Part shown: positions 3,288 through 26,199 of the stretch, piece by piece
Numbering within the stretch: the stretch's first letter is position 1
Layout of the letters: the number at the start of each line of letters is the position of its first letter
Origin: a virus
DNA length: 64,000 nucleotides
Reading direction: 5' to 3' (one strand)
Virus record (IMG/VR): IMGVR_UViG_3300030098_004409
Span: 1 to 64,000 of that record
Made by a program: the position numbers and the translations under genes
Notes under the pieces: generated by a model
Seen by the model: the letters and a program-made list of their open reading frames with translations, nothing else
The model's database searches: none
What the model was told of the DNA's origin: nothing

Positions 3288-3622
3288 ATTGGAATCGACC
3301 AGTAATAAAGTTATTAATCGCATGTAGTAGTTGAACGAATGGCTACTTAAAAAATCGTTCTCATTTTTTTTAAGTGTAGAAGAGAATTTCGCACTAGCCG
3401 CTTAATGCGGCAGGGGTATCACAGCCCTGTAAACCAAATAGTGATGACGCAGATAATTCCGCTAGAGTATATATACTTGAACTAAATATATATGATAACA
3501 ATAATTTGTTTGACTCCGATAATTCGGATAGCCTAGTATAGTGGGCGATAATAATTATACTAAACATGTAGAAGTTAATAATAATATTATGTGGCACGCG
3601 GGTTCAAATCCCGCCACCTCCA
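3280..3622 (+). ncRNA. ssrA: tmRNA, tag peptide (A)VEENFALAA
   Basis: 5' GGGGGTG pairs with 3' CACCTCC-A including the G3:U alanine determinant; T-arm GCGGG-TTCAAAT-CCCGC at 3598-3614; tag ORF at 3376-3405 after TAAGT, ending ALAA-TAA; CCA not encoded. Confidence 0.95.
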
Positions 3623-3760
3623 CTTAGTAATTATACTATCTTTTTATTTTGTCTCGCACAAACAAGCTTGATCATGGTTTGGGGCGCGAGCCAGCTAAAA
3701 CGTGTGTTTTTTCTTTTGGTTACGTCTAGAATATTGAGTAAGTTTTTTTTTGAGGTTGCA

Positions 3761-5589: not shown

Positions 5590-6212
5590 GTATAGAGAGC
5601 AACTTAGATCATAAGAGACAGTTAGCTTTTATAGCGATACCAAAAAATGCGTCTTTGTCAATTACCACCGCACTTCAAGGTAGTTCAACACCAGTTTATT
5701 TCCACAAGCCATATGTTGACATTGCTTCTAATTTGGACTATCTGAATTTAGACTACAAAAAATTTTGTGTTTGCAGGAATCCTTATGATAGAATTTTTTC
5801 AGCATACTCGTTTATGCTAAGAGGGGAACTTGTTTACGTAGAGGATATAGAATTTTCAGAACAGGTAAAACAGTTCGCAGATTTTAACGAGTTTGTCATA
5901 GAGTACTTGTCGTTACAGGAGCCCACACCGTGCCAAGTTGTAGATGTACGTGAGACAAATATGAAAACCACTCTTCACTTCCTGCCTCAATCAAACTGGG
6001 TCTGTGATCACAATTATGAACTCTTTCAGGATATAAAGATATATAGGTATGAGCGCCTACAAGAATTAGAAGAAGATCTTGAAATCCTATTGCCGCCTGA
6101 TTGTAATAGCTCATATAAGCCCAATTATTTAGATGTGTACAATGAGCAGTCCAAAGATATAATATATAGTATGTATAAATATGACTTTGTTAATTTCGGC
6201 TACGAAAGATGA
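5586..6212 (+). CDS. Sulfotransferase family 2 (carbohydrate sulfotransferase-like)
   Basis: IPKNAS (5'-PSB), RNPYDRIFSAY (3'-PB), HFLPQ, YxxDFxxFGY C-terminus. Confidence 0.85.
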   Translation: MSIESNLDHKRQLAFIAIPKNASLSITTALQGSSTPVYFHKPYVDIASNLDYLNLDYKKFCVCRNPYDRIFSAYSFMLRGELVYVEDIEFSEQVKQFADFNEFVIEYLSLQEPTPCQVVDVRETNMKTTLHFLPQSNWVCDHNYELFQDIKIYRYERLQELEEDLEILLPPDCNSSYKPNYLDVYNEQSKDIIYSMYKYDFVNFGYER

Positions 6213-8647
6213 ATGAAAAACATTATTGCACAAGACCCTTTGAATTTTTTGAAGTGTACGACGACGGTAGAGTTAGTTGCTGCTGCCCGTCTTGGATCAA
6301 TAATTATGAAATTGGCAGCATAAAAGACAAGTCAGTAGAAGAAGTATGGAACAGCGAGGAAGCTCAGGAACTAAGAAGATCAATCCTTGATGGTTCTTAC
6401 AGGTATTGCAACAGAGAGGTATGTCCGCACTTAGAAACAAAGACTCACTGCGTTCAGACTCTTTATCAGATAGGAAATACTAATAGCGATAGAGGTTGGA
6501 ATCTTATACATGACGATATCATTCAAGGTAAAACAAAGCTAGATCACACACCGCTAGATATAAACTTTGGGTACGATAGATCCTGTAATCTCGAATGTCC
6601 CTCGTGTAGATTAGAGCTAATCATGGAGTCTGGCAAAAAACGTGAGCAGATTTTAAATATACAAGATAAGCTAAAAAAAGAAGCCTTCCAAAATGCGAAA
6701 TCTTTTTGTATTACAGGTTCTGGAGATGCTTTCGCTAGCCCTATTTTCAGAAACCTTCTTCGCACACTGAAAAAAGAAGACGCTCCAAATCTAGAGACGA
6801 TTCAGATATTGACAAATGGACTTTTGATGAAGAGATGTTGGGATTCTTTGAGTGACTACTCAAAAGAAAAAATAAAGCACATTTCTGTATCTATTGATGC
6901 CGCCACTGAAGAAACATATAAGATCGTAAGAAAGGGTGGCGATTGGAATCTTCTTTTAGAAAATTTGCAATTTGCACAGGAGCTTCGGGTCACTGGACAG
7001 ATATTAACTTTAAATACAAGTTTTGTTGTCCAAAACGACAATCTCTCTGAGATGCTTGACTTTATAGAACTTTGCGATAAGTATTCTGTTGACTGCATTC
7101 AATTCCAAACCTATGAGCCTGATTTTCTTGCACCTACTCCAGATTTTTTTGAAGACTGGTTTTACAGATCAGTTCAAGAAAAGAAGCATCCTAGACATCA
7201 AGAGTTGCTTGATATTCTTTTTAATGGCGATTTGAGTAAACATGTTAGCGCGCATCAGAACCACACCACCGATTTTACACACGTAAACTTAGGTGGACTA
7301 TTCAACTTGCTAAACAATGTAGATATTTCACAACTAGAAGACAACCTTGAAAAATATGGGTATAAAGAAGTTTTTTATAATGATAAACTTCACTTTGTAA
7401 ATAGAAATGATATTAAGAGTATTCATGGAACTGACTCCATTACAAATGGCAGACTGAATGTCATATGGAACGGAGAAGAGTGGGTCGATCTTGAATCCTA
7501 CAATTTATTCAGAGAAAAAAAACAAACTATAGTAGAGGACATTCATGAGGACATTGACAATAGTTCTTTGACTACAGTAGAGACCTCTGGACTGTTCTGC
7601 GAACAGCCTTTTAGTAACTTTGAAGTCGATGAACACGGTAATGTCAGAACCTGCTGTTCCTACTGGATGAACGAGAAGATTGGGAATATACATGATTCCT
7701 CCATAGGTGAGATATTGAATTCTGATATAGCAAAAAAAATAAGAGGCTCTATACTGGATGGCTCATTCAGTTATTGCAATAAAAAGGCTTGTCCGAGACT
7801 TCAAAATATTGACAGTCTGCCGAATATAGATGAAGTAGACTGGGAGCCATTTAAGACTATAATCGAAAATAAAACAGTTCATATGGATGCAATTAAGCAT
7901 GTCAATTTTTTATGGGACGATTCCTGCAATCTACAATGTCCTAGTTGCAGGATAAGCTCAATAGTCCACACTTCAGGGAAAAAATATGATGATGCTCTAG
8001 CTATACAAAATAAGATAATGGATTTCATCTTAAATAAGCAACCTAAAGATGAAACATCGCTAAACATTACTGGTTCTGGCGACCCGTTTGGCTCAAAAGT
8101 TTTTAGGGACTTTTTAATAAACTTTAATGGAGAAGAACATTCAGAAATAAAGTTAAACCTACAGACAAACGGAGTTATGCTGACTGAAAAAATGTGGAAC
8201 ATGCTACATAAGTGTCATAAGAATATCAATCAGGTGGTCGTTTCTATCGACGCTGCTACCAAAGAAACTTATGATAAGATACGTGTAGGAGGTAACTGGG
8301 ACTTGCTAATGAAGAACATAGAAATGTTATCAAAATTAAGGCTTGAGGGTAAAATTAATATACTTAGGATCGACTCGGTAGTACAGAAGAACAATTACAA
8401 AGAGATGCCTGCATGCGTTGAGTTAGCCAACTCATTAGATGGCGTTGACAAAATGAATTTTTCAATCGTGACAGACTGGGGAACTTGGAAACGTGAAGTT
8501 TTTGAAGACCATGCCGTGTGGATGGAAGGCAATAAGTTACACAAGGACTTCTTGAATGTTTTAGATAACGACATTTTTGATGGCGATAAAGTTGACCTTG
8601 GAAATGTTTATCATTATTACAAAATAGCTAGGAGCAAAGATGATTAA
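6209..8647 (+). CDS. Tandem double SPASM/twitch + radical SAM protein
   Basis: Two CxxxCxxC motifs (CNLECPSC, CNLQCPSC), each preceded by a CxxPF...CC...IGxI Fe-S domain. Confidence 0.88.
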   Translation: MNEKHYCTRPFEFFEVYDDGRVSCCCPSWINNYEIGSIKDKSVEEVWNSEEAQELRRSILDGSYRYCNREVCPHLETKTHCVQTLYQIGNTNSDRGWNLIHDDIIQGKTKLDHTPLDINFGYDRSCNLECPSCRLELIMESGKKREQILNIQDKLKKEAFQNAKSFCITGSGDAFASPIFRNLLRTLKKEDAPNLETIQILTNGLLMKRCWDSLSDYSKEKIKHISVSIDAATEETYKIVRKGGDWNLLLENLQFAQELRVTGQILTLNTSFVVQNDNLSEMLDFIELCDKYSVDCIQFQTYEPDFLAPTPDFFEDWFYRSVQEKKHPRHQELLDILFNGDLSKHVSAHQNHTTDFTHVNLGGLFNLLNNVDISQLEDNLEKYGYKEVFYNDKLHFVNRNDIKSIHGTDSITNGRLNVIWNGEEWVDLESYNLFREKKQTIVEDIHEDIDNSSLTTVETSGLFCEQPFSNFEVDEHGNVRTCCSYWMNEKIGNIHDSSIGEILNSDIAKKIRGSILDGSFSYCNKKACPRLQNIDSLPNIDEVDWEPFKTIIENKTVHMDAIKHVNFLWDDSCNLQCPSCRISSIVHTSGKKYDDALAIQNKIMDFILNKQPKDETSLNITGSGDPFGSKVFRDFLINFNGEEHSEIKLNLQTNGVMLTEKMWNMLHKCHKNINQVVVSIDAATKETYDKIRVGGNWDLLMKNIEMLSKLRLEGKINILRIDSVVQKNNYKEMPACVELANSLDGVDKMNFSIVTDWGTWKREVFEDHAVWMEGNKLHKDFLNVLDNDIFDGDKVDLGNVYHYYKIARSKDD

Positions 8648-9695
8648 TATTACAGCACCTATAAACACTTTAGGTTATGGCATAGCAAGCTACAATATAA
8701 TTAAAAGCCTTGTGACTTTGGGCGAGAACGTCAACTACTATCCTATTGGTTCACCCGAATTTCCGGGGCAGTCCATGGAGATTCTAGACGCTATAAAGGT
8801 TAATGATATAAGCCTTAAATCGCCTTCTGTTAAGATATGGCATCAAAATGATGTACATCATCATATTGGCAAAGGCATACACGTATCGTTTCCTATATTT
8901 GAGCTGGATAGATTTTCAGACCAAGAAGTAAAAAGCCTCAGTCACAACGATAGAATATTTGTGTGTTCAAAATGGGCTAAAGCTATTATTGAAAAATGTG
9001 GGATTCCTGTCCCTGTTCATGTAGTACCTTTGGGTGTAGACACAGAAACTTTTAGTCCGACTCCAGTCTCGGCTAGACCAAAGACTATATTTTTCAACTG
9101 CGGCAAATGGGAAGTTAGAAAAGGTCATGATGTACTAGCTCAATGTTTTAATGACGCATTTGAACATGATGACGATGTAGAGCTTTGGATGATGTGCCAG
9201 AATCCATTTTACTCAGCAGAACAACAAAGTCAGTGGGAAAGACTTTACAAAAATTCCAAGCTTGGAGACAAAATAAGAATAATACCGAGACAAAATACTC
9301 ATCAGGATGTTTATAATATAATGAAGCAGGCTGACTGCGGAGTGTTTCCAGCTAGAGCAGAAGGATGGAACTTAGAGCTTTTAGAGATGATGGCCTGCGG
9401 GAAACATGTAATAGCTACTAACTACTCCGCACATACTGAGTTTTGCAATGAGCAGAATAGCATGCTGATTGATATTAAATCTCTTGAAGCTGCGCAAGAC
9501 GGAGTGTGGTTTAATGGGCAAGGCGCTTGGGCTTCTTTGGATAACGACTGCATAGAGCAAATAGTAAACCATATGAGACACGTTCACACAATGAAAAAAT
9601 CAGGAAGCTTGGGGCAGAATGTAGACGGTATTTATACATCTAGAGAGTTTTCTTGGGAAAACTCAGCTAAAAAATTTCTAGATGGGCTAAAATAA
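8640..9695 (+). CDS. Glycosyltransferase family 4 (GT-B)
   Basis: GKWEVRKG and EGWNLELLEMMACGK (ExxxxxxxE motif). Confidence 0.88.
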   Translation: MINITAPINTLGYGIASYNIIKSLVTLGENVNYYPIGSPEFPGQSMEILDAIKVNDISLKSPSVKIWHQNDVHHHIGKGIHVSFPIFELDRFSDQEVKSLSHNDRIFVCSKWAKAIIEKCGIPVPVHVVPLGVDTETFSPTPVSARPKTIFFNCGKWEVRKGHDVLAQCFNDAFEHDDDVELWMMCQNPFYSAEQQSQWERLYKNSKLGDKIRIIPRQNTHQDVYNIMKQADCGVFPARAEGWNLELLEMMACGKHVIATNYSAHTEFCNEQNSMLIDIKSLEAAQDGVWFNGQGAWASLDNDCIEQIVNHMRHVHTMKKSGSLGQNVDGIYTSREFSWENSAKKFLDGLK

Positions 9696-13999: not shown

Positions 14000-14162
14000 G
14001 TTCGGAGAGTAATGAAGCCCAGCTCTTAAACAAAAGCAGGCTAAACGACACTTTCTCCGGCTTGCCGAAAGGCACAGGATTCATCAAGATTTACTTGCTC
14101 TGTTACCTGTTTTTTTATAAGTGTCGTTTTTTTATTGCACCCTTTTTTACAACAGTGAGAGC
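14000..14162 (+). promoter_or_regulatory. Structured 5' leader of nrdA (candidate attenuator or cis-regulatory RNA)
   Basis: Several stems, a GAAA tetraloop, an 11-bp long-range pairing and two U-tracts. Confidence 0.45.
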
Positions 14163-16610
14163 ATGAGCCAAAATATAAAAATCAAAAAAAGAAACGGTCG
14201 TCTGGAAGAAGTAAACCTAGACAAGGTAAACAAGTGTGTAGAAAGAGCGTCCGAAGGTCTAGATGACGTTTCTGTTAGTGAAGTGGTGTTAGATGCGAGT
14301 CTACAGCTGTACAACAAAATACCTACATCTGAAATAAATAAAGCTCTAATTCTTTCTGCTAGATCAAAGATAGAAAAAGAACCTAACTACGCTTATGTTG
14401 CGGCGAGGATGCTTCTAAGTAACCTGTACAAAGAAGTATTTGGGGAGTCAGTAGATGTAGATAAGTTCGAGGATCAGTATAAGAAGTCTTTTGTGCGCAA
14501 CATAAAGAAATTAGTCAAAGAAGAACGTCTCAGTGAAAGACTTTTGTCTTATGATCTTGATGTTATTGCTGAAGCTATCACGCCCTCCCGTGACCACCTA
14601 TTCAAGTACCTCGGTATTCAAACCTTATATGATAGATACTTTATACATTTACAGGGTCGCAGGATGGAGACACCTCAAGCTTTCTACATGAGAGTAGCTA
14701 TGGGGCTGTGTCTATCAGAAGAGAACAAAGAGCAGAAAGCAATAGAAATATATAATATGATGTCTGAATTCAGATACTCACCTTCAACTCCCACTCTATT
14801 CAATAGTGGCACACGCAGGTCACAGCTTTCATCCTGCTACTTGAGTACTGTTGGGGACTCTATCGACGGCATCTTCGGCACTCTTCATGGTCAAGCAAGG
14901 CTCTCTAAGTACGCTGGCGGTCTTGGTGTGGATTGGTCTGGAGTCAGAGCTACGGGTGGCTACATTAAGGGAACCAACGGCAACTCTACTGGTCTAGTAC
15001 CTTGGCTTAAAATATTTAATGATTTATTGGTGGCTGTCAATCAGGGCGGTAAGCGCAAAGGCGCTGGATGCGCATATATAGAACCTTGGCATTTGGATGT
15101 AGAAGATTTCTTGGAGTTAAGAAAGAATACCGGAGATGACCGCCGGAGATGTCACGATATGAACACAGCCCTCTGGATTCCAGATGAATTTATGTTAGCC
15201 GTGAAGAAGAATCAAGACTGGTATCTTTTTGACCCATCTGAATGTAAAGAATTACATGATACCTACGGCAAAGAGTTTAGCAAACATTATAGAAGGTATA
15301 AGAAACTAGCTGACGCTGGAGAAATAAAAAACTACAGGGTCATAAACTCAAAAGATCTTTGGAAGAAAATGCTTACAGCCCTATATGAAACGGGTCATCC
15401 TTGGATTACATTTAAAGACCCATCTAATATTAGATATTCTAATAAACATGAGGGTGTAGTTCACTCCTCTAATTTATGTACAGAGATATTGCTACATACG
15501 TCTCCAACAGAATACGATGAGGGCAATATTGTTAAAGTTGGCGAGACAGCCGTTTGTAACTTAGCCAGCATAAATTTGGCATCACACCTGAAAGTTCGCA
15601 CAGTAGACTGGAAGAAATTACAAAAAACTATAGAAGTAGCCATTAGAGGTCTGGATAATGTCATCAACCTAAACTTTTATCCCACAGAAGAAGCAAAAAG
15701 AGCAAACCTAAAGCATAGACCTGTCGGTCTTGGAATTATGGGGACTCATGACGTTCTTCATAAGCTAGGGATACCCTACAATTCAAAGGATGCTGTTGTA
15801 TTATGTGGCAGAATTCAAGAATTCATATCTCTTCATGCAATTAAGACATCCGCTTTAATAGCCAGAGAAAAGGGTCAATACCCCTCCTTTGAGGGATCGG
15901 AGTGGAGTCAGGATAATTTTCCGATAGATACTTATTGTAATTTGATGAATCAGAGAGACCCCCAAAGAGCAGATAATGTGTATAAAAGAGAGGACTTCGA
16001 GAACTTTACTGAAGAATGGGAAGAAGCTAGGGAGCTAGTCAGGAGACACGGTATGCGTAACAGCAACGTGATGGCAATCGCCCCTACTGCAACGATCTCA
16101 TACATTCAGGGTTGTTCTCAGTCTATTGAACCAGATTACTCAGTTCTCTATGTTTACTCAACCTTGAGTGGAGAGTTTACTATGGTCAACGAACACTTTG
16201 TTGCAATGGCCAAAAAGAAGGGTATTTGGTGTCAAGAGCTGGTAGACGCTCTAAAAACTGCTGATGGCGATGTCATGGCGGTAGATCTGGATGAGGATAT
16301 TCAGAGAGAGTTTATCACTGCTTTTGACATAGAACCAGAAATTTTGATTGAGGCTGCGGCTGAAAGACAAAAGTGGATTGATATGGGACAGTCACTAAAC
16401 CTTTATAACAAACACGACAGCCTCAAATTTTTGAATGATCTTTATTTTTCTGCTTGGGAGAGTGGCCTTAAAACTACTTACTACTTAAGAGGTAAAGCCG
16501 CAACTAGAGTGGAAAAATCAACAGTTAGCTTTAAGTCTGCTGAAGAGCCTGAAGGTGAAGAGATCAAAGCTTGTTCTATTTTAGATCCCGGATGTGAGAG
16601 TTGCCAGTGA
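14163..16610 (+). CDS. nrdA: Ribonucleotide reductase class I alpha subunit with N-terminal ATP cone
   Basis: IKKRNG ATP cone, TPTLFN, SSC, SNLCTEI, APTATIS, KTTYY, C-terminal CESCQ. Confidence 0.97.
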   Translation: MSQNIKIKKRNGRLEEVNLDKVNKCVERASEGLDDVSVSEVVLDASLQLYNKIPTSEINKALILSARSKIEKEPNYAYVAARMLLSNLYKEVFGESVDVDKFEDQYKKSFVRNIKKLVKEERLSERLLSYDLDVIAEAITPSRDHLFKYLGIQTLYDRYFIHLQGRRMETPQAFYMRVAMGLCLSEENKEQKAIEIYNMMSEFRYSPSTPTLFNSGTRRSQLSSCYLSTVGDSIDGIFGTLHGQARLSKYAGGLGVDWSGVRATGGYIKGTNGNSTGLVPWLKIFNDLLVAVNQGGKRKGAGCAYIEPWHLDVEDFLELRKNTGDDRRRCHDMNTALWIPDEFMLAVKKNQDWYLFDPSECKELHDTYGKEFSKHYRRYKKLADAGEIKNYRVINSKDLWKKMLTALYETGHPWITFKDPSNIRYSNKHEGVVHSSNLCTEILLHTSPTEYDEGNIVKVGETAVCNLASINLASHLKVRTVDWKKLQKTIEVAIRGLDNVINLNFYPTEEAKRANLKHRPVGLGIMGTHDVLHKLGIPYNSKDAVVLCGRIQEFISLHAIKTSALIAREKGQYPSFEGSEWSQDNFPIDTYCNLMNQRDPQRADNVYKREDFENFTEEWEEARELVRRHGMRNSNVMAIAPTATISYIQGCSQSIEPDYSVLYVYSTLSGEFTMVNEHFVAMAKKKGIWCQELVDALKTADGDVMAVDLDEDIQREFITAFDIEPEILIEAAAERQKWIDMGQSLNLYNKHDSLKFLNDLYFSAWESGLKTTYYLRGKAATRVEKSTVSFKSAEEPEGEEIKACSILDPGCESCQ

Positions 16611-16744
16611 GATTCATAGAATTTAGACAAAGTGGGACATCGCCCATCAAATATAGATTAGAACTTAACCCCAAAGAAGCAGAAGAAGTCAAAGAACTAT
16701 TGCAACAGATAATTGAAAGATTGAATAAACATGAAGAAAAGTAA
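16607..16744 (+). CDS. Small hypothetical protein, 45 aa, between nrdA and nrdB (not in ORF track)
   Basis: GTG start overlaps nrdA stop (GTGA); MRFIEFRQSGTSPIKYRLELNPKEAEEVKELLQQIIERLNKHEEK. Confidence 0.5.
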   Translation: MRFIEFRQSGTSPIKYRLELNPKEAEEVKELLQQIIERLNKHEEK

Positions 16745-17738
16745 AGAAATTATATCAGACAAAGTGGCCACTGTAAATCAGATACTGCCGCACACTAATA
16801 AGTGGGCGTGGGATCTATTTATTGACGGAGCAGCCAATAATTGGATGCCTACAGAAATTTCCATGTCTAAGGATATTGAACAGTGGAAGTCAAATACGCT
16901 ATCAGATGATGAAAGGTTGGTTGTAAAGAGATGTCTTGGTTTCTTTGCGGGCTCAGAGTCTTTAGTCGCAAATAATCTCTTGCTTAGTATATTTAAATAC
17001 GTTACTGATCCTGAATGTCGTCAGTATATATTAAGACAGGCATACGAAGAAAGCCTGCACAATCTTACCGTAGTTTATGTCTGCGATTCTCTAAACTTGG
17101 ATATTGAAGAAGTTTATCAGGCTTATAACTCTATCCCTAGTATCAAAGCTAAGGATAACTTTCTGATGAACATCACCACAGACATCAATAGACCAGATTT
17201 TAATATAAACACATTAGAAGGAAAGAGAGAGTTCCTTCGCAATATCATTACTTATTATATCATCTGCGAAGGAATTTTCTTCTTTTCGGGCTTTGCTATG
17301 TTGCTATCTTTCAATAGACAAAACAAGTTGCCGGGAATTGGAGAACAAATTCAGTACACTTTGAGAGATGAGAGCCTACATATTAAGTTTGGCACTACAT
17401 TGATTAATAGACTTAGAGAAGACAACCCAAAGATCTGGACTAAGGCTATGGAAAAAGAAACTATTGAACACATAGAAACAGCAATGGAGTTAGAGCTTGC
17501 ATACGCTAGAGAGGTTTTACCTAATGGGATTCTCGGCCTTAACTCCGACATGTTTATTGATTATGTGCAGTTTATTGCCAATAGAAGGTTGAGCAACTTG
17601 AACTTGCCTTCTCCGTTTGAAGACACGCAGAATCCTTTTCCTTGGATGAGCGAGATCATTGATTTGGAAAAATGCAAGAACTTTTTTGAAACAAGAGTAA
17701 CAGAGTATTCAGTGGGTAATTTAGTAGACGATTTTTAA
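16731..17738 (+). CDS. nrdB: Ribonucleotide reductase beta subunit, class Ic (R2c)-like
   Basis: EESLH, EGIFF, RDESLH, NFFETRVTEY; first metal ligand is Glu (GSESLV) and Val sits at the radical-Tyr position. Confidence 0.93.
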   Translation: MKKSKEIISDKVATVNQILPHTNKWAWDLFIDGAANNWMPTEISMSKDIEQWKSNTLSDDERLVVKRCLGFFAGSESLVANNLLLSIFKYVTDPECRQYILRQAYEESLHNLTVVYVCDSLNLDIEEVYQAYNSIPSIKAKDNFLMNITTDINRPDFNINTLEGKREFLRNIITYYIICEGIFFFSGFAMLLSFNRQNKLPGIGEQIQYTLRDESLHIKFGTTLINRLREDNPKIWTKAMEKETIEHIETAMELELAYAREVLPNGILGLNSDMFIDYVQFIANRRLSNLNLPSPFEDTQNPFPWMSEIIDLEKCKNFFETRVTEYSVGNLVDDF

Positions 17739-17750
17739 AAGGTATTAGCT

Positions 17751-18749
17751 ATGTCAAGAATTTTCTGGGCCTGCCAGTCAGTATACATAGATGGTTCGTA
17801 TGTTAAAGGCGTTCAATCTGTGGGTCTAGATATAGCTAACGAATGGGAAACTCTTGCTCCAGATAAGGGTATTCAAGATTTTTTTCTGCAGGAAAGACAC
17901 AAAGTAGGGAATCCAAAACCTGAAATCACCTGCACTATAGAAAGACATGTAAGGGTTGATACTCTTCCTCTAATTTTTAACTGTACCGATGGGCATGTTT
18001 TATCGAAAACTGGTGGTGGATTAGGTTATTGTGGCTGGGACGACGGCTTTAAAGAGTATACCATAGATATAGCTTACGGTAGTGAAGACTATACATACGG
18101 AAGTTCTACTCAAGTGAGAACACTTAAATATTGTCTCATACAGGACATTTCTTATAGTTTCTCTGTTGATGGCTTCTTCACTGAGACTATAACATTTGTA
18201 ACTAACTATATGGAAAACGGTTCGGGTAAAGCTGGAACTCAAAGTTATGGAGACCTAGCAAGTGAAGAACGGGGTGACGACCTCGTTGGTAGAAGATTTA
18301 ATTTTCTTACCGACGCAAGTAGTCTCGGCTACGGTTTTCTTACTGACGGTGCTATTCAGTCCGTTTCTGCAAGTATCTCATTTAGCTACGAAGAAATACC
18401 TGAAAAAGGTTTAATCAAAGGTGCGGCTACCGAGTCTGAGCAAAACTATTGGAAATATCAGACATTGCCAGTTTCTATCAGCGGAGAGGTGACATCTGTA
18501 ATAACGAGCGACTACGCCACAAAGTTAAAAATACAAACAGCGACAACTAACCTACCCGCAACCGCACTTAGATTCAAACTTCAAAGGTATGGAGGCGGGT
18601 CAAGCAGTATTCTCGATATTGACTTTGGTTCTAAAAATAATTGTACCGGAATCAGCACTAGCGGAGGTACTGCAGGTAGTAACGATAATGTTGAAGTTAC
18701 TGCATCATTTCAAAATGTAGAAAATTATTTTAAACTAACCAAATCATAA
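17751..18749 (+). CDS. Putative tail tube-like structural protein
   Basis: Beta-rich, Gly/Ser/Thr-rich; GVQSV and ISYSFSVDG strands; inference only. Confidence 0.4.
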   Translation: MSRIFWACQSVYIDGSYVKGVQSVGLDIANEWETLAPDKGIQDFFLQERHKVGNPKPEITCTIERHVRVDTLPLIFNCTDGHVLSKTGGGLGYCGWDDGFKEYTIDIAYGSEDYTYGSSTQVRTLKYCLIQDISYSFSVDGFFTETITFVTNYMENGSGKAGTQSYGDLASEERGDDLVGRRFNFLTDASSLGYGFLTDGAIQSVSASISFSYEEIPEKGLIKGAATESEQNYWKYQTLPVSISGEVTSVITSDYATKLKIQTATTNLPATALRFKLQRYGGGSSSILDIDFGSKNNCTGISTSGGTAGSNDNVEVTASFQNVENYFKLTKS

Positions 18750-18759
18750 GGAGCAAATC

Positions 18760-20019
18760 GTGTTAGATTTTATTTTTGATCGCAGGAATTTTTTGAGGAT
18801 AGGAAGTATTGGCGCAGGACTAAGCGCTGTTGGTTTGTCTGATTACGCCTTGGCCCAAGACGCTCTGTCGAATCAAGATAAAGCTGTTGTTTGGGTATGG
18901 CTCGGAGGAGGACCAACTCAGTTTGAGACATTTCATGCCCCAAATGATACGGTTCCTACAGAATGGCAACCAATCAACGGAGCAATTCACGACCCCAAAA
19001 CCAATATAACATTGGGTGCTGACTGGACAGGTCTAGCCCAACATACCTCTAAGCTAAACGTAATAAATTCTTTTAGCCACAAAGATTCATCGCACAGACA
19101 AGGTACACACTTCATGATGACTGGGCATTATAACCCAGAAAGAACCACAACGTCTATAGCTAAATACCCATCTTTTGGTTCTATTGTTTCCGCTGTCTAT
19201 GGTGCGAATCACCCCCAAAATGGAGTACCAACTTATGTTAAACAAGGTAAAATTGAAGGTGATGAAGGTGCTTGGCTGGGTGGAGCATTTAAACCATTTG
19301 ATCCGTCCAATAAAGACAATCTCACACCAAGAATTGAAATCGACAGATTCAACAACAGAAAACAACTCTTAGGAGCCATAGGTTCAGCGGCTAAAGATAT
19401 ATCTGGAGCAGGAGCTGAATCAGTTGGATTTTACAAAGGTCAAGCCTACGATGTTATTCTCGGTTCTGCTAAAGATGCATTTGCAACGGATAAAGAAACA
19501 GAACAGATGAAAGCTCTATACGGTTCAGAAAAAGCCAACGATATCGGTGAACAGATGCTGTTAGCTCGTCGTCTTGTCGAGCATGGCACAAAATTTGTTA
19601 CCGTACACTACGGAGGATGGGATATGCACAGTAATATCTCAGACGCATTAAAGAAAAGAGTAGCCCCTGTCGATAAAGCTATTAGCGGATTTCTACAAGA
19701 TGTGTGGGATAAGGGTTTAAATGATAAAGTATTATTAGTGGTTACGGGAGAATTTGGAAGAACCAAGATCAACGCAAACGCCGGTAGAGATCACTGGCCC
19801 GCTATTACGCCAATGATGATGGCTGGTGGAAACTACGATTCAGGTAGGACTATCGGAGCATCAGACAGATCATACAGCCCAGTAGAAAATCCGGTTGGGC
19901 CACTAGATTTACAAGCAACACTATTTAATCATTTCGGGATAAGTAACGAAATTCAGCGTGTTGATAACGGTGGAAGACCAAGATATTTATTGGAAGGTGA
20001 AGCAAAGGTAATACTATAA
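18760..20019 (+). CDS. DUF1501 family protein (Tat signal), paralog 1
   Basis: DRRNFL Tat motif; WLGGGPTQFETF, ARRLVE, GGWDMH, GEFGRT, GRDHWP. Confidence 0.9.
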   Translation: MLDFIFDRRNFLRIGSIGAGLSAVGLSDYALAQDALSNQDKAVVWVWLGGGPTQFETFHAPNDTVPTEWQPINGAIHDPKTNITLGADWTGLAQHTSKLNVINSFSHKDSSHRQGTHFMMTGHYNPERTTTSIAKYPSFGSIVSAVYGANHPQNGVPTYVKQGKIEGDEGAWLGGAFKPFDPSNKDNLTPRIEIDRFNNRKQLLGAIGSAAKDISGAGAESVGFYKGQAYDVILGSAKDAFATDKETEQMKALYGSEKANDIGEQMLLARRLVEHGTKFVTVHYGGWDMHSNISDALKKRVAPVDKAISGFLQDVWDKGLNDKVLLVVTGEFGRTKINANAGRDHWPAITPMMMAGGNYDSGRTIGASDRSYSPVENPVGPLDLQATLFNHFGISNEIQRVDNGGRPRYLLEGEAKVIL

Positions 20020-20561
20020 TGAAAAAAGAAGATTACGCAAAAGACTTAAATCAATTCTGCGCTGAAGGTGGATATACAGAAGATATTACGGAAGACAACT
20101 TTGTAATACCCGCAGAAGCAGACTACGAAGATTTTGGTGAAGATACCGAAGACTGGGATATTGCGGAAGCAAAGCCGGGACTTTGGGAAAACATTAGAAA
20201 GAAAAAGCAGCGAGAAGGTGACGATTACAAGCCCGCTAAACCGGGAGATCCTGATCGACCAGATCCAAAGTCTTGGAAGAAAGCTCAAAAACCTAAAGAT
20301 GACGATAAATCTAAAGGCTCTGAGTATCAAGGCAGAAAAGTAAAACTTAATAAGCCCTTTAGGACTCCTGATGGCCCAAAGAAGTTTTCTGTTTATGTTA
20401 AGAATGAAAAGGGTAATGTAGTCAAGGTTAACTTTGGCGACCCTAACATGGAAATTAAAAAAGACGATCCAGCAAGACGCAGAAGTTTTAGAGCCCGTCA
20501 CAAGTGTGACACTCCCGGCCCTAAGTGGAAAGCAAGATACTGGTCGTGCAAGAAATGGTAA
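20019..20561 (+). CDS. Conserved phage protein (acidic N-terminus, basic C-terminal domain)
   Basis: KVNFGDPNM...RRRSFRARHKC...ARYWSCKKW, a domain I recall from large marine phages. Confidence 0.7.
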   Translation: MKKEDYAKDLNQFCAEGGYTEDITEDNFVIPAEADYEDFGEDTEDWDIAEAKPGLWENIRKKKQREGDDYKPAKPGDPDRPDPKSWKKAQKPKDDDKSKGSEYQGRKVKLNKPFRTPDGPKKFSVYVKNEKGNVVKVNFGDPNMEIKKDDPARRRSFRARHKCDTPGPKWKARYWSCKKW

Positions 20562-20570
20562 GAGGAAATT

Positions 20571-21878
20571 ATGAATTGCAAAGGAAATAATATTGGTCGC
20601 AGATCTTTTCTGCATGTCGGCTTTTTGGGTGGCTTGGGTTTAACTTTATCGGATTACTTCCGAATGAAGACGGCGCAGGCTGACCAAAAATTCTACGAAA
20701 GCATAGAAGGCCCAGCTAAAAGTGTTATATTTATTTATCTTCCGGGAGGTATGGCTCATCAGGAAACTTTTGATCCCAAACCTTTCGCTCCTCTGGAATA
20801 CAGAGGGCCGATGTCTAGCATTGAAACGGTAGTTCCCGGAACTAGATTAAATGAAATGATGGCTAAAACAGCTAAAGTTACCGACAAGATGACTATTATT
20901 CGCAGTATGACACATGGAGAAGCAGCTCATGAACGAGGCACACACAATATGTTTACTGGCTATAGACCTAGCCCAGCCCTTCAATATCCATCAATGGGAT
21001 CAGTGGTTGCGCATGAGTTTGGGCCTCGTCAAAACCTTCCTCCATATGTCTGCATCCCAAACCAACCAAACGAATTTGCAGGTACTGGATATTTAAGTAG
21101 CTCGTTTTCGGGTTTTAGTTTGGGTGCTGACCCAGCAAGCTCTGGCTTTCAAGTACGAGACCTAAAACTTCCAGCAGGAGTGAATGATGGAAGATTTGGT
21201 ACTAGAAGAAAGATGCTTTCTGCGGTAAATGATTACTTTGCAAATAAAGAAAAGTCAGACTCTTTGGATGCTGTAGATTCGTTCTATGATAGAGCTTATA
21301 GTTTAATCAGTAGCGAAAAAGCTCGTGATGCATTTGACATTAATAAAGAGAGCGATGCTATGCGAGATAAATATGGTAGAAATACTGCTGGAGCTCGTAT
21401 GCTTTTGGCTCGTCGTTTAGTTGAAGCTGGAACCCGTTTCGTCACACTAACTTATGGCGGCTGGGATATGCATGACAATATAGAAAGTGGTATTCGTGGA
21501 CAAGTGCCTGCATTGGATCAAGGGCTTGCGGCTCTTATTGAAGACCTCAGTGACAGAGGACTGCTTGATTCTACTCTAGTATGTCTAGCATCTGAGTTTG
21601 GAAGAACACCGAAGATTAACGCTACCGCTGGGCGTGACCACTGGCCAAAAGTTTTCAGTGTAGTTATGGCTGGTGGAGGAATCAAAAACGGCATGGTCTA
21701 TGGTACTTCTAATGCAACTGCAAGTGAGCCAGACGAAAATGCCATGACGGTAGAGGACTGGGCTGCGACAATCTATAATCGAATTGGTATTGTTTCCGAC
21801 AAAGAGCTTATGGCTCCCGGCGACCGTCCCATTGAGATTGTTGACGGCGGAGAAGTTAGACAAGAATTAATAGTATAG
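20571..21878 (+). CDS. DUF1501 family protein (Tat signal), paralog 2
   Basis: GRRSFL; GGMAHQETFDPKP, ARRLVEAG, GWDMH, SEFGRTP, GRDHWP. Confidence 0.93.
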   Translation: MNCKGNNIGRRSFLHVGFLGGLGLTLSDYFRMKTAQADQKFYESIEGPAKSVIFIYLPGGMAHQETFDPKPFAPLEYRGPMSSIETVVPGTRLNEMMAKTAKVTDKMTIIRSMTHGEAAHERGTHNMFTGYRPSPALQYPSMGSVVAHEFGPRQNLPPYVCIPNQPNEFAGTGYLSSSFSGFSLGADPASSGFQVRDLKLPAGVNDGRFGTRRKMLSAVNDYFANKEKSDSLDAVDSFYDRAYSLISSEKARDAFDINKESDAMRDKYGRNTAGARMLLARRLVEAGTRFVTLTYGGWDMHDNIESGIRGQVPALDQGLAALIEDLSDRGLLDSTLVCLASEFGRTPKINATAGRDHWPKVFSVVMAGGGIKNGMVYGTSNATASEPDENAMTVEDWAATIYNRIGIVSDKELMAPGDRPIEIVDGGEVRQELIV

Positions 21879-21888
21879 GGAGAATTAA

Positions 21889-22107
21889 ATGCCTTTACCA
21901 AAAAGAAATAAAGATGAAGATGCTAAAAATTTTGTAAATCGCTGCATGTCTAGCGACGTAATGAAAGAAGAGTATCCAAGTCACCAGCAGAGGGTTGCTG
22001 TGTGCATTAGTCAATCACGAGCCGCTTCTACCGCAGAAGGCTTAGCCGCTGCTAGTGAAGAGCTTATTTATGAAAATATCAAAAAGGAGACACGAGATGA
22101 AGTTTAA
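21889..22107 (+). CDS. Conserved small phage protein
   Basis: MPLP...FVNRCM...EYP...QRVAVC motif; GGGAG SD. Confidence 0.7.
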   Translation: MPLPKRNKDEDAKNFVNRCMSSDVMKEEYPSHQQRVAVCISQSRAASTAEGLAAASEELIYENIKKETRDEV

Positions 22108-22291
22108 AATACCGCTGATAGCAATTATTATAGTTGCGGCAATATGTTTCATTAACAAAGAGGAGATAAAAGATATGTTTAACAGCGATCAACCAGCAGT
22201 TTGTAAAGTTTGTGTAGATGAGTGTCCATGTCTAGAAACAAGTTGCATTTGTGATGTTAATATCTGCAAATGTGAAAAGTGCGTTAGTTAA
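22097..22291 (+). CDS. Small membrane-anchored or exported Cys-rich protein
   Basis: Hydrophobic N-terminus; 9 Cys in CKVCVDECPCLETSCICDVNICKCEKC; AGGAG SD. Confidence 0.7.
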   Translation: MKFKIPLIAIIIVAAICFINKEEIKDMFNSDQPAVCKVCVDECPCLETSCICDVNICKCEKCVS

Positions 22292-22308
22292 AAAATTAGA
22301 GGTGTATT

Positions 22309-23592
22309 ATGCTTAATTTATCACGTAGAAGTTTTTTGTCCGTAGGTGGTCTCGGTCTTCTTTCTATGCCACAAGTGTTGCGTGCCCAAGAGGAAAGCGG
22401 AACGTCTCATAAGGCTGTTATCAATATATTTCTTGGCGGTGGCCCACCGCACCAAGACATGTGGGATATAAAGACTGAAGCTCCATCGGAAATCCGTGGC
22501 CCATTTAAACCGATCTCGACCAACGTGGCGGGAGTATACATCGGAGAGTGTTTTCCACAAATTGCGTCTATGTTTGATAAATTTACTGCGGTTCGTTCTG
22601 TAGTTGGATCAGATGGCGCTCATGATGGATACCAGTGTGTTACCGGATGGAGCCGGAAAGATATGGTTTCTGGAGTCAACTACCCTGCTATTGGAGCGTG
22701 CGCTTCTAAAATTTTGGGGTCTGTTGATCCTGCCGTACCAGTTGCGGTAGGATTGGCAGAACCTACACAGCACAACCCTTGGTCAGAAGCTGGAGGTGCT
22801 GGCTACCTTGGAGATACACATAAACCATTTAAGCCAAACGGTGAAATGATGAAAGACCTAAAACTCAACATGCAAGTTGAGAGGTTTAAGAATAGAAAAG
22901 ATTTGTTAACAGGATTTGCAGAACTAAATAAAACTATAGACAAAGCTGTTAACGTAGACACCTTCACTGAAGAAGCCTTTGGTGTTTTAGCATCAAGCTC
23001 TCTAGTAGACGCTTTAGACTTGTCAAAGGAAGATCCAAAGATTAGAGAAATGTATGGAGATGGCAAGCCATTCAAATTCCAATACGACGGAGCGCCCACA
23101 GTCAATGAGCATGTGCTTATGGCTCGTCGCTTGGTGTCTGCTGGGGCACGCTCTGTCACACTGTCTTATGGAAGATGGGACAGTCATGGCTCTAACTTCG
23201 ATTTGGTCAGAGATCACGGAGCTAAACTTGACCAATGCGTGTCAGCACTTGTTCGAGACCTTGACCAACGTGGCATGCTTGATGACACACTTGTTGTAGT
23301 GTGGGGAGAATTTGGCAGAACACCTAAGATTAACCCAAAGGGTGGTCGTGACCACTGGCCTCAAGTGTCATGCGCTTTGCTCGCTGGCGGAGGATTTAGT
23401 CACGGCCAAACTATTGGAGAAACAAACAGACTTGGTGAGACTCCTGAATCTAGACCAGTACATATTCAAGAAATATGTGCTACAATGTATAGAGGTTTAG
23501 GTATTGATACAATGTCCACGACTTTACTAGACAACACTGGAAGACCTCAATATCTTCTAGATCACAGAGAACCACTTAAGGAGTTAATATAA
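22309..23592 (+). CDS. DUF1501 family protein (Tat signal), paralog 3
   Basis: SRRSFL; GGGPPHQDMWD, ARRLV, WDSH, GEFGRTP, GRDHWP. Confidence 0.93.
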   Translation: MLNLSRRSFLSVGGLGLLSMPQVLRAQEESGTSHKAVINIFLGGGPPHQDMWDIKTEAPSEIRGPFKPISTNVAGVYIGECFPQIASMFDKFTAVRSVVGSDGAHDGYQCVTGWSRKDMVSGVNYPAIGACASKILGSVDPAVPVAVGLAEPTQHNPWSEAGGAGYLGDTHKPFKPNGEMMKDLKLNMQVERFKNRKDLLTGFAELNKTIDKAVNVDTFTEEAFGVLASSSLVDALDLSKEDPKIREMYGDGKPFKFQYDGAPTVNEHVLMARRLVSAGARSVTLSYGRWDSHGSNFDLVRDHGAKLDQCVSALVRDLDQRGMLDDTLVVVWGEFGRTPKINPKGGRDHWPQVSCALLAGGGFSHGQTIGETNRLGETPESRPVHIQEICATMYRGLGIDTMSTTLLDNTGRPQYLLDHREPLKELI

Positions 23593-23984
23593 TGAAATAT
23601 TTAGCGTCACTATTATGTTTACTGTTTGTGCCTTTATCTGCAAGTGCGGATCAGCCAGAGCGCAAGGTTATTAAGCCACCGCAAGTTGTTAGAAGTCAGC
23701 CTAGAAATTTTACAAGACCCCCTACGGCAAGACCTACAATTCCCGGAAAGCAACAGTGGCAGAAACCTCAGCCTCAGCCTCAGCCTCAGCAGCCAAGAGT
23801 TGAGACTAAACATAGCTTTGGTTTTTACAATTACTACAGACCTGTAAATCCACATTTTAGATACTATAGAGTTCCCTCTTATTATCCGCCTGTGATTATT
23901 CAACCACCTGTGGTTATCCAGCCTCAACCAATGCCAGTTTATCCGGGCCCATTTCATGGGTTCTTTTTTCAGTTCAGGTGGTAA
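23592..23984 (+). CDS. Secreted Pro/Gln/Tyr-rich low-complexity protein
   Basis: Sec signal ending ASA; PQPQPQPQQP; PPVIIQPPVVIQP; aromatic C-terminus GFFFQFRW. Confidence 0.7.
   Translation: MKYLASLLCLLFVPLSASADQPERKVIKPPQVVRSQPRNFTRPPTARPTIPGKQQWQKPQPQPQPQQPRVETKHSFGFYNYYRPVNPHFRYYRVPSYYPPVIIQPPVVIQPQPMPVYPGPFHGFFFQFRW
23766..23789 (+). repeat. (CCTCAG)x4 coding microsatellite
   Basis: Seen directly; encodes PQPQPQPQ. Confidence 0.9.
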
Positions 23985-23985
23985 T

Positions 23986-25200
23986 ATGGAAAGACGTAAT
24001 TTTTTAGCTTCTGTAGCGAGCGTATTGTCGCTAGCGGAAACTGTACAGGCAAACCAAGATCAGCTAAAGAAAAACGGCAAATCCGCTATTCTGTTATGGA
24101 TGGGCGGTGGCCCTTCTACAATGGATATCTGGGATCTTAAATCGGGCGCTCCTACAGGTGGCCCGTTTCGCCCAATCGCAACTAGTGGGGATGTTCAAAT
24201 TAGCGAACACATGCCATTGATGGCCAAGCAAATGCATCACGCCGCTATTGTTAGGAGTATGAGCACTCGTGAAGCAGATCATATGCGAGGTCGTTATTAT
24301 ATGCATACTGGGTATGTTCCCAACCCTAACATTGACCATCCTAGCTATGGTTCTGTCCTATCTCATCAACTAAGACGAAAAGATTTGGCAATTCCCCAGT
24401 TTATTTCTGTGGGTGGCGGTAGTATGGGAGCAGGTTTTCTAGGAGCTAAGTACAATCCTTTTGTTGTAAACAGCGATGGTAGGATCAGAAATCTAGATAT
24501 GAAAGTAGATCAGAGATTCTACCAAAGGGCATACGCTCTAGATGCTATAGAGAATGAATTTATAAATCAAAGACGAGGACAACTAGCAAAAGACCATCGA
24601 GCTATACTTAAAGAAGCATTTAATGTCTTGACAAGCGCACAGATGGACGCACTTAAGGTTGCTAGTGAGCCGGAGAACGTAAAGGAAAGATACGGGGACA
24701 ATAGCTTTGGCAAAGGGTGTCTAATGGCTAGACGCTTGGTGGAAGCTGGCGTGCCTTTTATTGAAGTTAATCTAGGTGGCTGGGATAACCATCAAAATAT
24801 CTTCCCAACTCTAAGAGATACGAAATTGCCCATGCTAGATCAAGGCATGAGCGCGCTGTATGAAGATTTAGAACAGCGTGGGTTATTACAAGACACAGCG
24901 ATTATTTGGATGGGCGAGTTCAGTAGAACTCCCCGTATCAATGGTAATGCCGGTCGTGACCACTGGGCACGAAGCTGGAGTGTTATTGTTGGTGGAGCTG
25001 GAATGAATGGCGGCATAGCCATTGGCGAAACAAACTCAGATGGTACTCGTGTTGAAACCGAACCATACACCTCACAGGATGTTATGGCCTCCGTTTGTAA
25101 AGCACTGAGCATTTCTTTGGGGACTACGTTTACTAGCAGCAGTGGTAGACCTATGAAAATCGCTAACTCCGGCAAGGTTATAACCGAACTGTTTGGTTAG
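23986..25200 (+). CDS. DUF1501 family protein (Tat signal), paralog 4
   Basis: MERRNFL at ATG 23986; GGGPSTMDIWD, ARRLVEAG, GWDNH, GEFSRTP, GRDHW. Confidence 0.93.
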   Translation: MERRNFLASVASVLSLAETVQANQDQLKKNGKSAILLWMGGGPSTMDIWDLKSGAPTGGPFRPIATSGDVQISEHMPLMAKQMHHAAIVRSMSTREADHMRGRYYMHTGYVPNPNIDHPSYGSVLSHQLRRKDLAIPQFISVGGGSMGAGFLGAKYNPFVVNSDGRIRNLDMKVDQRFYQRAYALDAIENEFINQRRGQLAKDHRAILKEAFNVLTSAQMDALKVASEPENVKERYGDNSFGKGCLMARRLVEAGVPFIEVNLGGWDNHQNIFPTLRDTKLPMLDQGMSALYEDLEQRGLLQDTAIIWMGEFSRTPRINGNAGRDHWARSWSVIVGGAGMNGGIAIGETNSDGTRVETEPYTSQDVMASVCKALSISLGTTFTSSSGRPMKIANSGKVITELFG

Positions 25201-25204
25201 TATT

Positions 25205-25501
25205 ATGAAATTCTTCAAGAACGCAGTTTATGTGCTATTTTCACTATCTTTACTGAATTTAGCGGGTTCTTTCTATATGTATAGACATATAATGAGTAAG
25301 AGTAATGTAGTGGAGGTAAAGATTCCTGTGTTAAAAGACCTCGAAGAACTACCTTTCCACTCGAGAGTTAGAGACACGCAGATATTAAAAGCAATTCTTA
25401 TGACTCATCACCAGCTCGGGATACATAAGCCCGGCTCTCAGCCGATGTGCCCAATGTGTCAAGATTCAGAAATTAAAACTATAACAGTAGAGAATGATTA
25501 A
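25205..25501 (+). CDS. Membrane-anchored hypothetical protein
   Basis: N-terminal TM helix; C-terminal HH...H...CPMC. Confidence 0.65.
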   Translation: MKFFKNAVYVLFSLSLLNLAGSFYMYRHIMSKSNVVEVKIPVLKDLEELPFHSRVRDTQILKAILMTHHQLGIHKPGSQPMCPMCQDSEIKTITVEND

Positions 25502-26199
25502 TGGCAAGACAACCCAAAAAGAAGCCGACAACTAGACAACGCCGCAAAATCCTTCGCCCTAAAACTAGAAATCAAGAAAACTATATGGGGCAAATCAACA
25601 AGTCCGATGTTACGTTTTGCTCTGGGCCTGCTGGTTCAGGGAAGACTAGCGTCTCTGTAGGCATGGCCTGCGAGTACTTGATTGAAAAGAAGGTGGATAA
25701 GATTATTATTACTAGACCAGTCGTCGAATCTGGAAGAGGCTTAGGCCACCTTCCGGGGACGTTGGTTGAAAAGATAAACCCATATTTAATACCTATACTA
25801 GAAGAGATGAATCAGTATCTAACAAAAAGCACTGTTGAGATGTATAGAAATAGAAATATTATTGAGTTATGTCCCTTAGAATATATGAGGGGGCGAAACT
25901 TTCATAATTGTTTCATGATCCTTGATGAAGCACAGAACGCTACGTTCGAGCAGATTAAAATGTTTATCACAAGAATTGGCAAAGACTCAAAGGCGGTGAT
26001 AAATGGAGACTTAAGACAGTCCGACTTAGGCAAGCAACAAGGAGGCTTGCACACATGTATGGAAAAATTAGTTGATGTCTCCGGTGTAGGAGTTTGCGAG
26101 CTTGACTATAGCGATATTGTGAGAAGCGATATTGTGTCCAAAATTCTCATAAGATTAAACAAGAAAGAAGACAATAATGAGCCAGTCAAATATTTTTAG
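25501..26199 (+). CDS. phoH: PhoH family ATPase
   Basis: GPAGSGKT, ITRPVVE, LGHLPG, YMRGRNF, ILDEAQN, GDLRQSD. Confidence 0.95.
   Translation: MARQPKKKPTTRQRRKILRPKTRNQENYMGQINKSDVTFCSGPAGSGKTSVSVGMACEYLIEKKVDKIIITRPVVESGRGLGHLPGTLVEKINPYLIPILEEMNQYLTKSTVEMYRNRNIIELCPLEYMRGRNFHNCFMILDEAQNATFEQIKMFITRIGKDSKAVINGDLRQSDLGKQQGGLHTCMEKLVDVSGVGVCELDYSDIVRSDIVSKILIRLNKKEDNNEPVKYF

Follow-up and report, generated by a model that had tools for sequence, protein, structure and literature searches.

A stretch of viral DNA in the IMG/VR database (record IMGVR_UViG_3300030098_004409) encodes, one after the other on the same strand, four proteins of the DUF1501 family (D1 to D4) with predicted twin-arginine translocation (Tat) export signals. 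The genes are the result of four separate captures from different cellular DUF1501 lineages and are not duplicates that arose within the phage. The window analyzed here comprises positions 1 to 64,000 of a contig of 110,288 b that is estimated to be 71% complete. With moderate confidence, we regard the four genes as an accessory cassette of host-derived auxiliary genes, whose products would be exported catalytic subunits that work beside partner proteins of the host and boost a DUF1501-dependent reaction in the periplasm.

The four DUF1501 genes and their cellular origins

The four genes and their scores against the DUF1501 profile of Pfam (PF07394) are as follows:

18760..20019, + strand: D1, Tat-signal DUF1501 protein, 419 aa (220 bits)
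20571..21878, + strand: D2, Tat-signal DUF1501 protein, 435 aa (385 bits)
22309..23592, + strand: D3, Tat-signal DUF1501 protein, 427 aa (279 bits)
23956..25200, + strand: D4, Tat-signal DUF1501 protein, 414 aa (339 bits)

The gathering score of the profile is 27 bits, and all four proteins span it from position 1-2 to position 386-390 of 390; a six-frame search of the contig agrees with these matches. Pairwise identity among the four is only 28-38%. Their N-termini are of the Tat type, with RRNFL, RRSFL, RRSFL, and RRNFL in D1 to D4, then a hydrophobic segment, and then a site resembling AxA (ALA, AQA, LRA, and VQA), and the family motifs WDxH, EF(G/S)RT, and GRDHW are kept in each of them. 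An earlier note on this DNA, made from the letters alone, had described four divergent open reading frames (ORFs) of ~405-435 aa with a twin-arginine motif and these family motifs, which the profile scores and identities bear out. The conservation extends beyond this contig, as the family motifs are intact in 170/170 viral copies and RRxF is found in 164/170. D1-D4 match no PHROG or NCBIfam family, and a tblastn search against 50,697 GenBank phage records gave no match.

The origin of the genes was examined in a maximum-likelihood tree of 124 rows consisting of phage and cellular DUF1501 proteins, with support given as SH-aLRT. Each phage class nests in its own cellular clade (support of 97-100). 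For D4, the phage rows form a clade (100) whose sister is the candidate host genus introduced below (97); the D2 phage rows are mixed with copies from that genus; and the D3 phage rows are monophyletic (100) and nested in a D3-like clade of cellular proteins (98). D1 forms a clade (100) on a long stem, and the cellular clade next to it (99) is only ~40% identical. The earlier note had called the four proteins paralogs, and a single capture followed by duplication and divergence in the phage would indeed account for genes that lie in tandem, are co-oriented, and have all family motifs in common. The nearest relatives of each class are, however, in a cellular clade and not among the other phage classes, and constraining the phage rows to a single clade lowers the log-likelihood by 1025 units (p = 1e-102 in the approximately unbiased (AU) test). 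The idea that the cellular orthologs are themselves prophage or viral DNA is disfavored by their surroundings, which are cellular operons on contigs that measure 0.13-2.2 Mb and have a host-like GC content of 45-53%. The tree test thus rejects in-phage duplication, which we consider barely credible. It was also considered whether D2 had been transferred several times, because in the unconstrained tree its rows are intermixed with those of the host; this idea was dropped, as a single D2 clade is not rejected (p-AU 0.51).

The nearest proteins to D2 outside of viral-like contigs (87-88% identity) come from metagenome-assembled genomes (MAGs) at NCBI with Pirellulaceae or Rhodopirellula labels, and one of them is located on a contig of 4.8 Mb. 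In seven Pirellulaceae species genomes of 3.4-4.9 Mb, which serve here as candidate hosts, D2 has a single-copy counterpart of 86-87% identity. Among the Pirellulales of GTDB, 110/201 genomes match D2 (55%) at 61-79% identity, with exactly one gene in 108/110, although DUF1501 matches number from 38 to >100 per Pirellulales genome. D4 behaves similarly: 52/61 Pirellulales genomes match (85%) at 57-68% identity, once per genome in 50/52, and five of the seven candidate host genomes each contain a single match of 77-79%. D3 gives a single match of 57-59% in the same five genomes, while its subfamily is multi-copy in Pirellulales (several paralogs per genome; best match 62%). Candidate host genomes G207, G322, G390, G471, and G547 (4.5-4.9 Mb) are unusually dense in the family, with about 150-180 first-look DUF1501 candidates each; a wider count over candidate hosts of this size gave about 150-215.

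D1 stands apart from the other three classes. Its best Pirellulales match is only 44%, and no match at E<=1e-95 was found in the five candidate host genomes. An exhaustive search delivered a gradient of relatives (63, 58, 49, 46 ... % identity), in which the nearest representatives (41-49%) come from metagenomes only, on contigs of up to 171 kb. The relative of 49% identity occurs on >20 IMG/VR viral contigs, including relatives that have no array at the ribonucleotide reductase (RNR) site described below. D1 is best read as an old DUF1501 class that apparently now lives and diversifies in phages.

The likely hosts are probably planktonic marine Pirellulaceae (Planctomycetes), judging from these gene similarities. 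The candidate host genomes encode TatC, a component of the Tat translocase; no TatC gene was found on the contig of the phage. The tag peptide of the phage transfer-messenger RNA (tmRNA) was considered as further evidence for the host and set aside as too weak (VEENFALAA in the phage versus ADNNLALAA or ADENLALAA in the hosts). The tags share their length and the -ALAA end, and the RNAs are divergent outside their conserved ends. A D2 ortholog of 76% identity was also found at locus L081, on a 56-kb contig of a MAG titled 'uncultured Chitinophaga sp.' (G004). It groups with Pirellulales copies, and that genome contains 82 DUF1501 matches, a pattern typical of bacteria of the Planctomycetes-Verrucomicrobia-Chlamydiae (PVC) group, so that the bin has probably been assigned to the wrong taxon.

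Age, gene packing, and distribution among phages

The GC content at third codon positions (GC3) of D1-D4 is 0.31-0.37, inside the spread seen in 41 other genes of the phage (mean 0.371, sd 0.035), whereas the host orthologs show values of 0.44-0.51. The four genes hence share the codon style of the phage, as had been proposed. Nucleotide identity between the phage and host genes is 58-74%, and their synonymous sites are saturated (pS about 0.8), which, together with the phage-like GC3, agrees with the suggestion of the earlier note that the genes are long resident. Within the phage lineage, the ratio of nonsynonymous to synonymous substitution rates (dN/dS) is 0.052 for D1, 0.041 for D2, 0.038 for D3, and 0.029 for D4, which indicates strong purifying selection and not the relaxed selection that the earlier note had named as a possible objection. 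By these sequence measures, D1-D4 are old, ameliorated, and presumably functional genes.

The cassette lies in the left arm of the window, in which the long ORFs are all on the + strand and densely packed. The contig is that of a tailed phage. It encodes a split DNA polymerase, DnaB, a primase, an exonuclease, a RecA-like protein, the large and small subunits of RNR, and PhoH, and its opposite arm consists of giant genes, including one for a 3849-aa protein with a PhageMin_Tail (tape-measure) domain. The lineage appears to be one of large marine tailed phages of roughly 145 kb. The flanks of the cassette, the small ORFs interleaved with D1-D4 (180, 72, 78, 130, and 102 aa), and the tmRNA gene are:

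3280-3623, + strand: tmRNA gene, tag peptide as given above
14121..17738, + strand: RNR large and small subunits (Pfam Ribonuc_red_lgC/lgN/ATP-cone and Ribonuc_red_sm), upstream flank and phage backbone
17751..18749, + strand: g332, fast-evolving 332-aa protein between RNR and D1, possibly tail-tube-like
20019..20561, + strand: s180, Lys-rich charged protein of 180 aa that lacks a signal peptide and matches phrog_7595 (unknown function, E 4.8e-14); probably an unrelated gene of the phage
21889..22107, + strand: s72, small soluble ORF of 72 aa with no Pfam or PHROG match, whose position varies among relatives
22055..22291, + strand: s78, small membrane-anchored protein with one hydrophobic helix and then a Cys-dense C-terminal tail, no family match
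23592..23984, + strand: s130, Pro/Gln-rich protein with a Sec-type signal peptide, predicted from sequence features to be secreted, no family match
25193..25501, + strand: s102, protein with an N-terminal transmembrane helix and a CPMC motif (sequence features), no family match
25501..26199, + strand: PhoH-like ATPase (PF02562, 233 bits), downstream flank and phage backbone

The alternation with small genes and the tight packing with TAATG couplings described in the earlier note are confirmed, as true TAATG overlaps occur at three junctions (D1 to s180, D3 to s130, and s102 to phoH) and every gap is <=17 nt. The small ORFs gave no NCBIfam match and, except for s180, no PHROG match. In related phages, s180 follows D1 in 18 loci and is found at other places too, s78 follows D2 in 14 loci, and s130 comes after D3 in 10 loci and before D4 in 5. 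The steadiest companion of D4 is s102, which follows it in 21 related loci. Homologs of s130 lie upstream of the RNR large subunit in loci L025-L029, L041, and L045 and between D3 and D4 elsewhere; s130 thus moves within the genome. The cassette is accordingly rich in predicted envelope-targeted products, and a functional link between the small genes and the DUF1501 proteins would be conjecture.

A scan of IMG/VR yielded 368 stretches encoding relatives, and the best 80 of these 368 loci were analyzed (55-97% identity to D1; contigs of up to 174 kb). Every DUF1501 ORF in these 80 loci fits one class at >=50% identity, giving 77 copies of D1, 40 of D2, 19 of D3, and 34 of D4. The gene order RNR-(g332)-D1...D4-s102-phoH recurs on many IMG/VR contigs from different metagenomes, so that the survey for the same synteny proposed in the earlier note had a positive outcome. 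Moreover, the junctions from g332 to D1 and from D3 through s130 to D4 are bridged by DNA contigs from other sequencing runs.

These observations bear on whether host DNA was merely joined to a phage contig by faulty assembly or binning, a concern that the earlier note had raised and to which the 87% identity of the D2 protein to a Pirellulaceae gene lends some color. The nucleotide identity to the host genes is only 58-74% and the GC3 is phage-like, the same order is seen on dozens of contigs from different samples, other runs span the junctions, and the spacing with overlapping stop and start codons is that of a phage. The chance of such an artifact is negligible, and the recurrence of the synteny in different metagenomes supports the view that these are genuine phage genes.

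The content of the cassette varies. Among 31 D1-anchored loci with enough flanking sequence, 8 have all four genes, 7 have D1-D2-D4, 5 have D1-D3, and 4 have D1-D4; the rest consist of 3 with D1-D2, 3 with D1 alone, and 1 with D1-D4-D2. When the RNR small subunit was used as a DUF1501-independent anchor in 42 relatives with >=6 kb of downstream sequence, DUF1501 genes were found downstream of RNR in 13/42 and none there in 29/42, most of which have phoH directly downstream of the RNR small subunit. Of five array-free contigs, 2 contain one DUF1501 gene elsewhere and 3 contain none at all, among them a 143-kb relative that is estimated to be 95% complete. The worry expressed in the earlier note that related phages might lack the genes is borne out in part, since the array is missing from the site in the majority of the RNR-anchored relatives and present there in the remaining 13. 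It follows from these 29 relatives and the nearly complete genome that the module is accessory and not a fixed feature of the lineage.

There is also a hint of transcription. Contigs from a metatranscriptome library match parts of D1, s180, D2, s72, and s78 with 0-3 differing letters per piece (one piece has, in addition, two 1-base gaps). These contigs cover only parts of the region, and most of D3 and D4 is uncovered in run X18, where no inference is drawn. A promoter and terminator scan of the region gave results at chance level. In one DNA run, a contig joins position 19335 to 21453 with 29 letters on the shorter side, probably through a motif common to D1 and D2.

Host partners, predicted fold, and proposed role

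In cellular genomes, the genes orthologous to D2, D3, and D4 have partners. In Pirellulales, the D2 ortholog is the first gene of an operon in which it is followed by the gene for a PPC-domain protein of ~810-910 aa, in most loci by that for a PSCyt2/PSD1 protein of ~810-850 aa, and often by a PSCyt1-WD40 gene. The same D2 operon is found in the candidate host genomes. PSCyt2 (PF07583) and PSD1 (PF07587) are the domains also known as DUF1549 and DUF1553. The D4 ortholog lies downstream of a gene for a 560-780-aa PSCyt2/PSD1 protein with an invariant CxxCH motif in 9/10 Pirellulales loci and 3/3 candidate-host loci, and the D3 ortholog lies upstream of a PSCyt2/PSD1-like gene in the candidate hosts. 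The structure predicted for the D4 partner of the host is confident and mainly helical and has no recognizable solved relative. On the 110-kb phage contig, PF07583 and PF07587 gave no match at E<=0.1, and the host partner proteins gave no tblastn match in 230 related viral loci (3.3 Mb). By this synteny, the partners of D2, D3, and D4 were left behind in the host.

The predicted structure of D2 has the alpha/beta core fold of the alkaline-phosphatase/sulfatase superfamily and is closest to PafA and NPP. The earlier note had proposed a metalloenzyme with a site like that of alkaline phosphatases or sulfatases, and the fold of the model agrees with the superfamily part of that proposal. An S1 formylglycine-dependent sulfatase was considered and rejected, as only the fold is similar: the C/S-x-P-x-R formylglycine motif is present in 0/170 viral copies (residues 40-160), and PF00884 (Sulfatase) gave no match at E<=0.01. 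A sequence search of the PDB returned nothing better than E 0.27. The WDxH and GRDHW motifs would correspond to the two pairs of C-terminal metal ligands in the superfamily, and the conserved S112 and the invariant H120 of D2 are candidate catalytic residues. Together, the predicted fold and the His/Asp motifs suggest that the proteins hydrolyze or transfer an ester of the phosphate or sulfate type in a metal-dependent reaction.

On the reading that we favor, D1-D4 would be made in the cytoplasm of the infected cell, folded and probably loaded with metal there, and exported to the periplasm by the Tat translocase of the host. They would then work there with the partner proteins of the host, either adding to its catalytic subunits or replacing them, so that the DUF1501-dependent periplasmic reaction is sustained or boosted to the benefit of phage production. 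Given the neighborhood of RNR and phoH, nutrient supply for DNA synthesis would be the most economical purpose. The features expected of auxiliary genes that were observed are the cellular origin (tree and AU test), the RNR and phoH flanks together with the tape-measure gene, and a dN/dS of 0.03-0.05.

A bolder version is put forward here only tentatively. In it, the phage proteins would form mixed phage-host complexes in the periplasm with the PSCyt2/PSD1 proteins that carry the heme motif, D1 would be a virus-specific class with a role of its own, and the cassette would be a natural minimal toolkit for revealing the role of the hundred-plus DUF1501/PSCyt pairs of Planctomycetes. For D1, which has no known partner, docking onto a host partner cannot be argued from synteny.

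Alternatively, the cassette might remodel the envelope or periplasm of the host for superinfection exclusion, receptor modification, or the preparation of lysis and virion release, with the DUF1501 enzymes and s78, s130, and s102 acting on envelope glycans or lipids instead of supplying metabolism. Three of the five interleaved small genes encode proteins with a signal peptide or a transmembrane helix, and one of these, s102, is the frequent follower of D4 noted above; LtaS, a member of the alkaline-phosphatase superfamily, is among the fold matches; and the same phage has glycosyltransferase matches in a large glycan-synthesis block. On the other hand, D2 and D4 are 79-87% identical to widespread single-copy orthologs of the host, which argues that a host function has been kept rather than a phage-specific activity acquired. 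Furthermore, none of this ties the small genes to the DUF1501 genes, as s130 and s180 move around, and the cassette is situated in the arm for nucleotide metabolism and replication and not beside lysis or virion genes. We regard remodeling as unlikely.

The absence of the partner genes from the phage could also be explained if the phage copies were decoys that compete with the host DUF1501 proteins, either in binding to the PSCyt2/PSD1 partners or in being exported by Tat, and thereby shut down or redirect a host process, and an identity of 79-87% is close enough for binding to the same partners. A decoy would not need an intact active site, yet WDxH, EFxRT, GRDHW, and the invariant His are kept in 170/170 viral copies, and purifying selection (dN/dS of 0.03-0.05) acts over the whole length of the genes. 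Such interference is highly improbable.

Several points weigh against the proposed role of exported subunits that support a host reaction. D1, the most widespread class, is the one that has neither a close cellular ortholog nor a known partner, and the array is dispensable, as relatives carry from zero to four copies. All four proteins have a Gly-Gly right after the first core strand, at the position usually taken by a metal-binding Asp. As no DUF1501 protein has a known biochemical function, the proposed reaction is guessed from the predicted fold. The host was assigned solely by the similarity of genes, and the RNA-library contigs do not prove transcription.

Phage context, known systems, and significance

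The earlier note had placed the array between a structural-like gene and phoH. The downstream neighbor is indeed phoH; upstream, the array is preceded by RNR and then by g332, whose likeness to a tube protein exists in feature space only. In that language-model feature space, g332 scores 0.97-0.98 to Phage_tube_2 clusters, and it has no match in Pfam, PHROG, or NCBIfam, so that a structural identity is a lead and not a finding. A tube-like gene such as g332 would be an odd component of a replication arm. Its identity among relatives is 24-41%, and it is missing from some of them: a DNA contig of run X7 joins position 17738 to 18758, and in loci L025-L029 the RNR small subunit gene leads directly to D1.

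Elsewhere in the window, the DNA polymerase (phrog_405) is split into two genes at 36468-38039 and 40163-41740 (both + strand) that lie ~2.1 kb apart with intact ORFs between them. The regions 6209-9695 and 42577-45329 (+ strand) encode an 812-aa radical-SAM-domain protein and several glycosyltransferases. Ten large virion-arm proteins (321-1444 aa; contig positions 64-110 kb and loci L255-L257) gave no PHROG match, and six of them, run against Pfam, gave no match either; in the 3849-aa protein, which is not one of the ten, the tape-measure domain is the only match. The structural module of this phage lineage thus seems essentially unrepresented in current family libraries.

The closest known systems are the modules of DUF1501 with PSCyt1, PSCyt2, and PSD1 in PVC bacteria (Planctomycetota, Verrucomicrobiota, and Lentisphaerota; Kamneva et al. 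2012, PMC3542564; He et al. 2017, PMC5615132), with which the phage genes share a full-length DUF1501 domain and the same Tat signal. The four-gene cluster of DUF1501, PPC, PSCyt-PSD1, and PSCyt1-WD40 has been described as the 'most complex' DUF1501 cluster (Kamneva et al. 2012, PMC3542564), and D2 is orthologous (86-87%) to the DUF1501 protein of that module. Likewise, D4 is orthologous (77-79%) to the DUF1501 protein of the two-gene PSCyt2/PSD1-DUF1501 module. Unlike these modules, the phage strings together four DUF1501 genes from different modules with no PSCyt/PSD1, PPC, or WD40 partner. Compared with characterized enzymes of the alkaline-phosphatase superfamily (PafA, NPP/ENPP, and S1 sulfatases), the proteins are no more than 10-14% identical, and none of the solved structures gives a significant match by sequence.

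Marine phages carry host-derived auxiliary metabolic genes, such as psbA, pstS, and phoA in cyanophages. The DUF1501 genes resemble them in being host-derived, recoded, under purifying selection, variable in presence, and located near phoH and genes of nucleotide metabolism. They differ in that the function of DUF1501 is unassigned, in that four members of one family were captured independently, and in that the products are predicted to be Tat-exported subunits whose usual partners stay in the host.

The earlier note stated that no such phage system had been described. In the literature searched, no description of phage DUF1501 copies was found, save for a weak domain match in a 61-aa ORF of a Pseudomonas phage. 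A phage DUF1501 protein is, however, already deposited in UniProt as A0A6J5M742 ('DUF1501 domain-containing protein [uncultured Caudovirales phage]'), so that the claim holds for descriptions of a system and not for the presence of the domain in phages. It is the only BFVD model that matches the D2 model well (E 4.6e-10), and it differs from D2 in its length of 489 aa and an identity of only 16% over the structural alignment. We know of no description of this protein.

Few gene families of Planctomycetes and Verrucomicrobia are larger than DUF1501 and its PSCyt/PSD1 partners, which have been unexplained since their first description (PMC3542564, PMC5615132). By retaining exactly four DUF1501 genes, two of which correspond to widespread single-copy host orthologs, the phage points to the members that matter most in infection, and small, partner-free genes offer a compact handle for expressing and assaying DUF1501. 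The cassette also connects a widespread lineage of large marine phages with its probable hosts. Phages of Planctomycetes are barely known, and their infections were still counted as previously unrecorded in a 2026 Hi-C study (PMC13035462). If the reaction proves to be the hydrolysis of phosphate or sulfate esters, the cassette would join phoH and pstS as a nutrient-acquisition module of phages.

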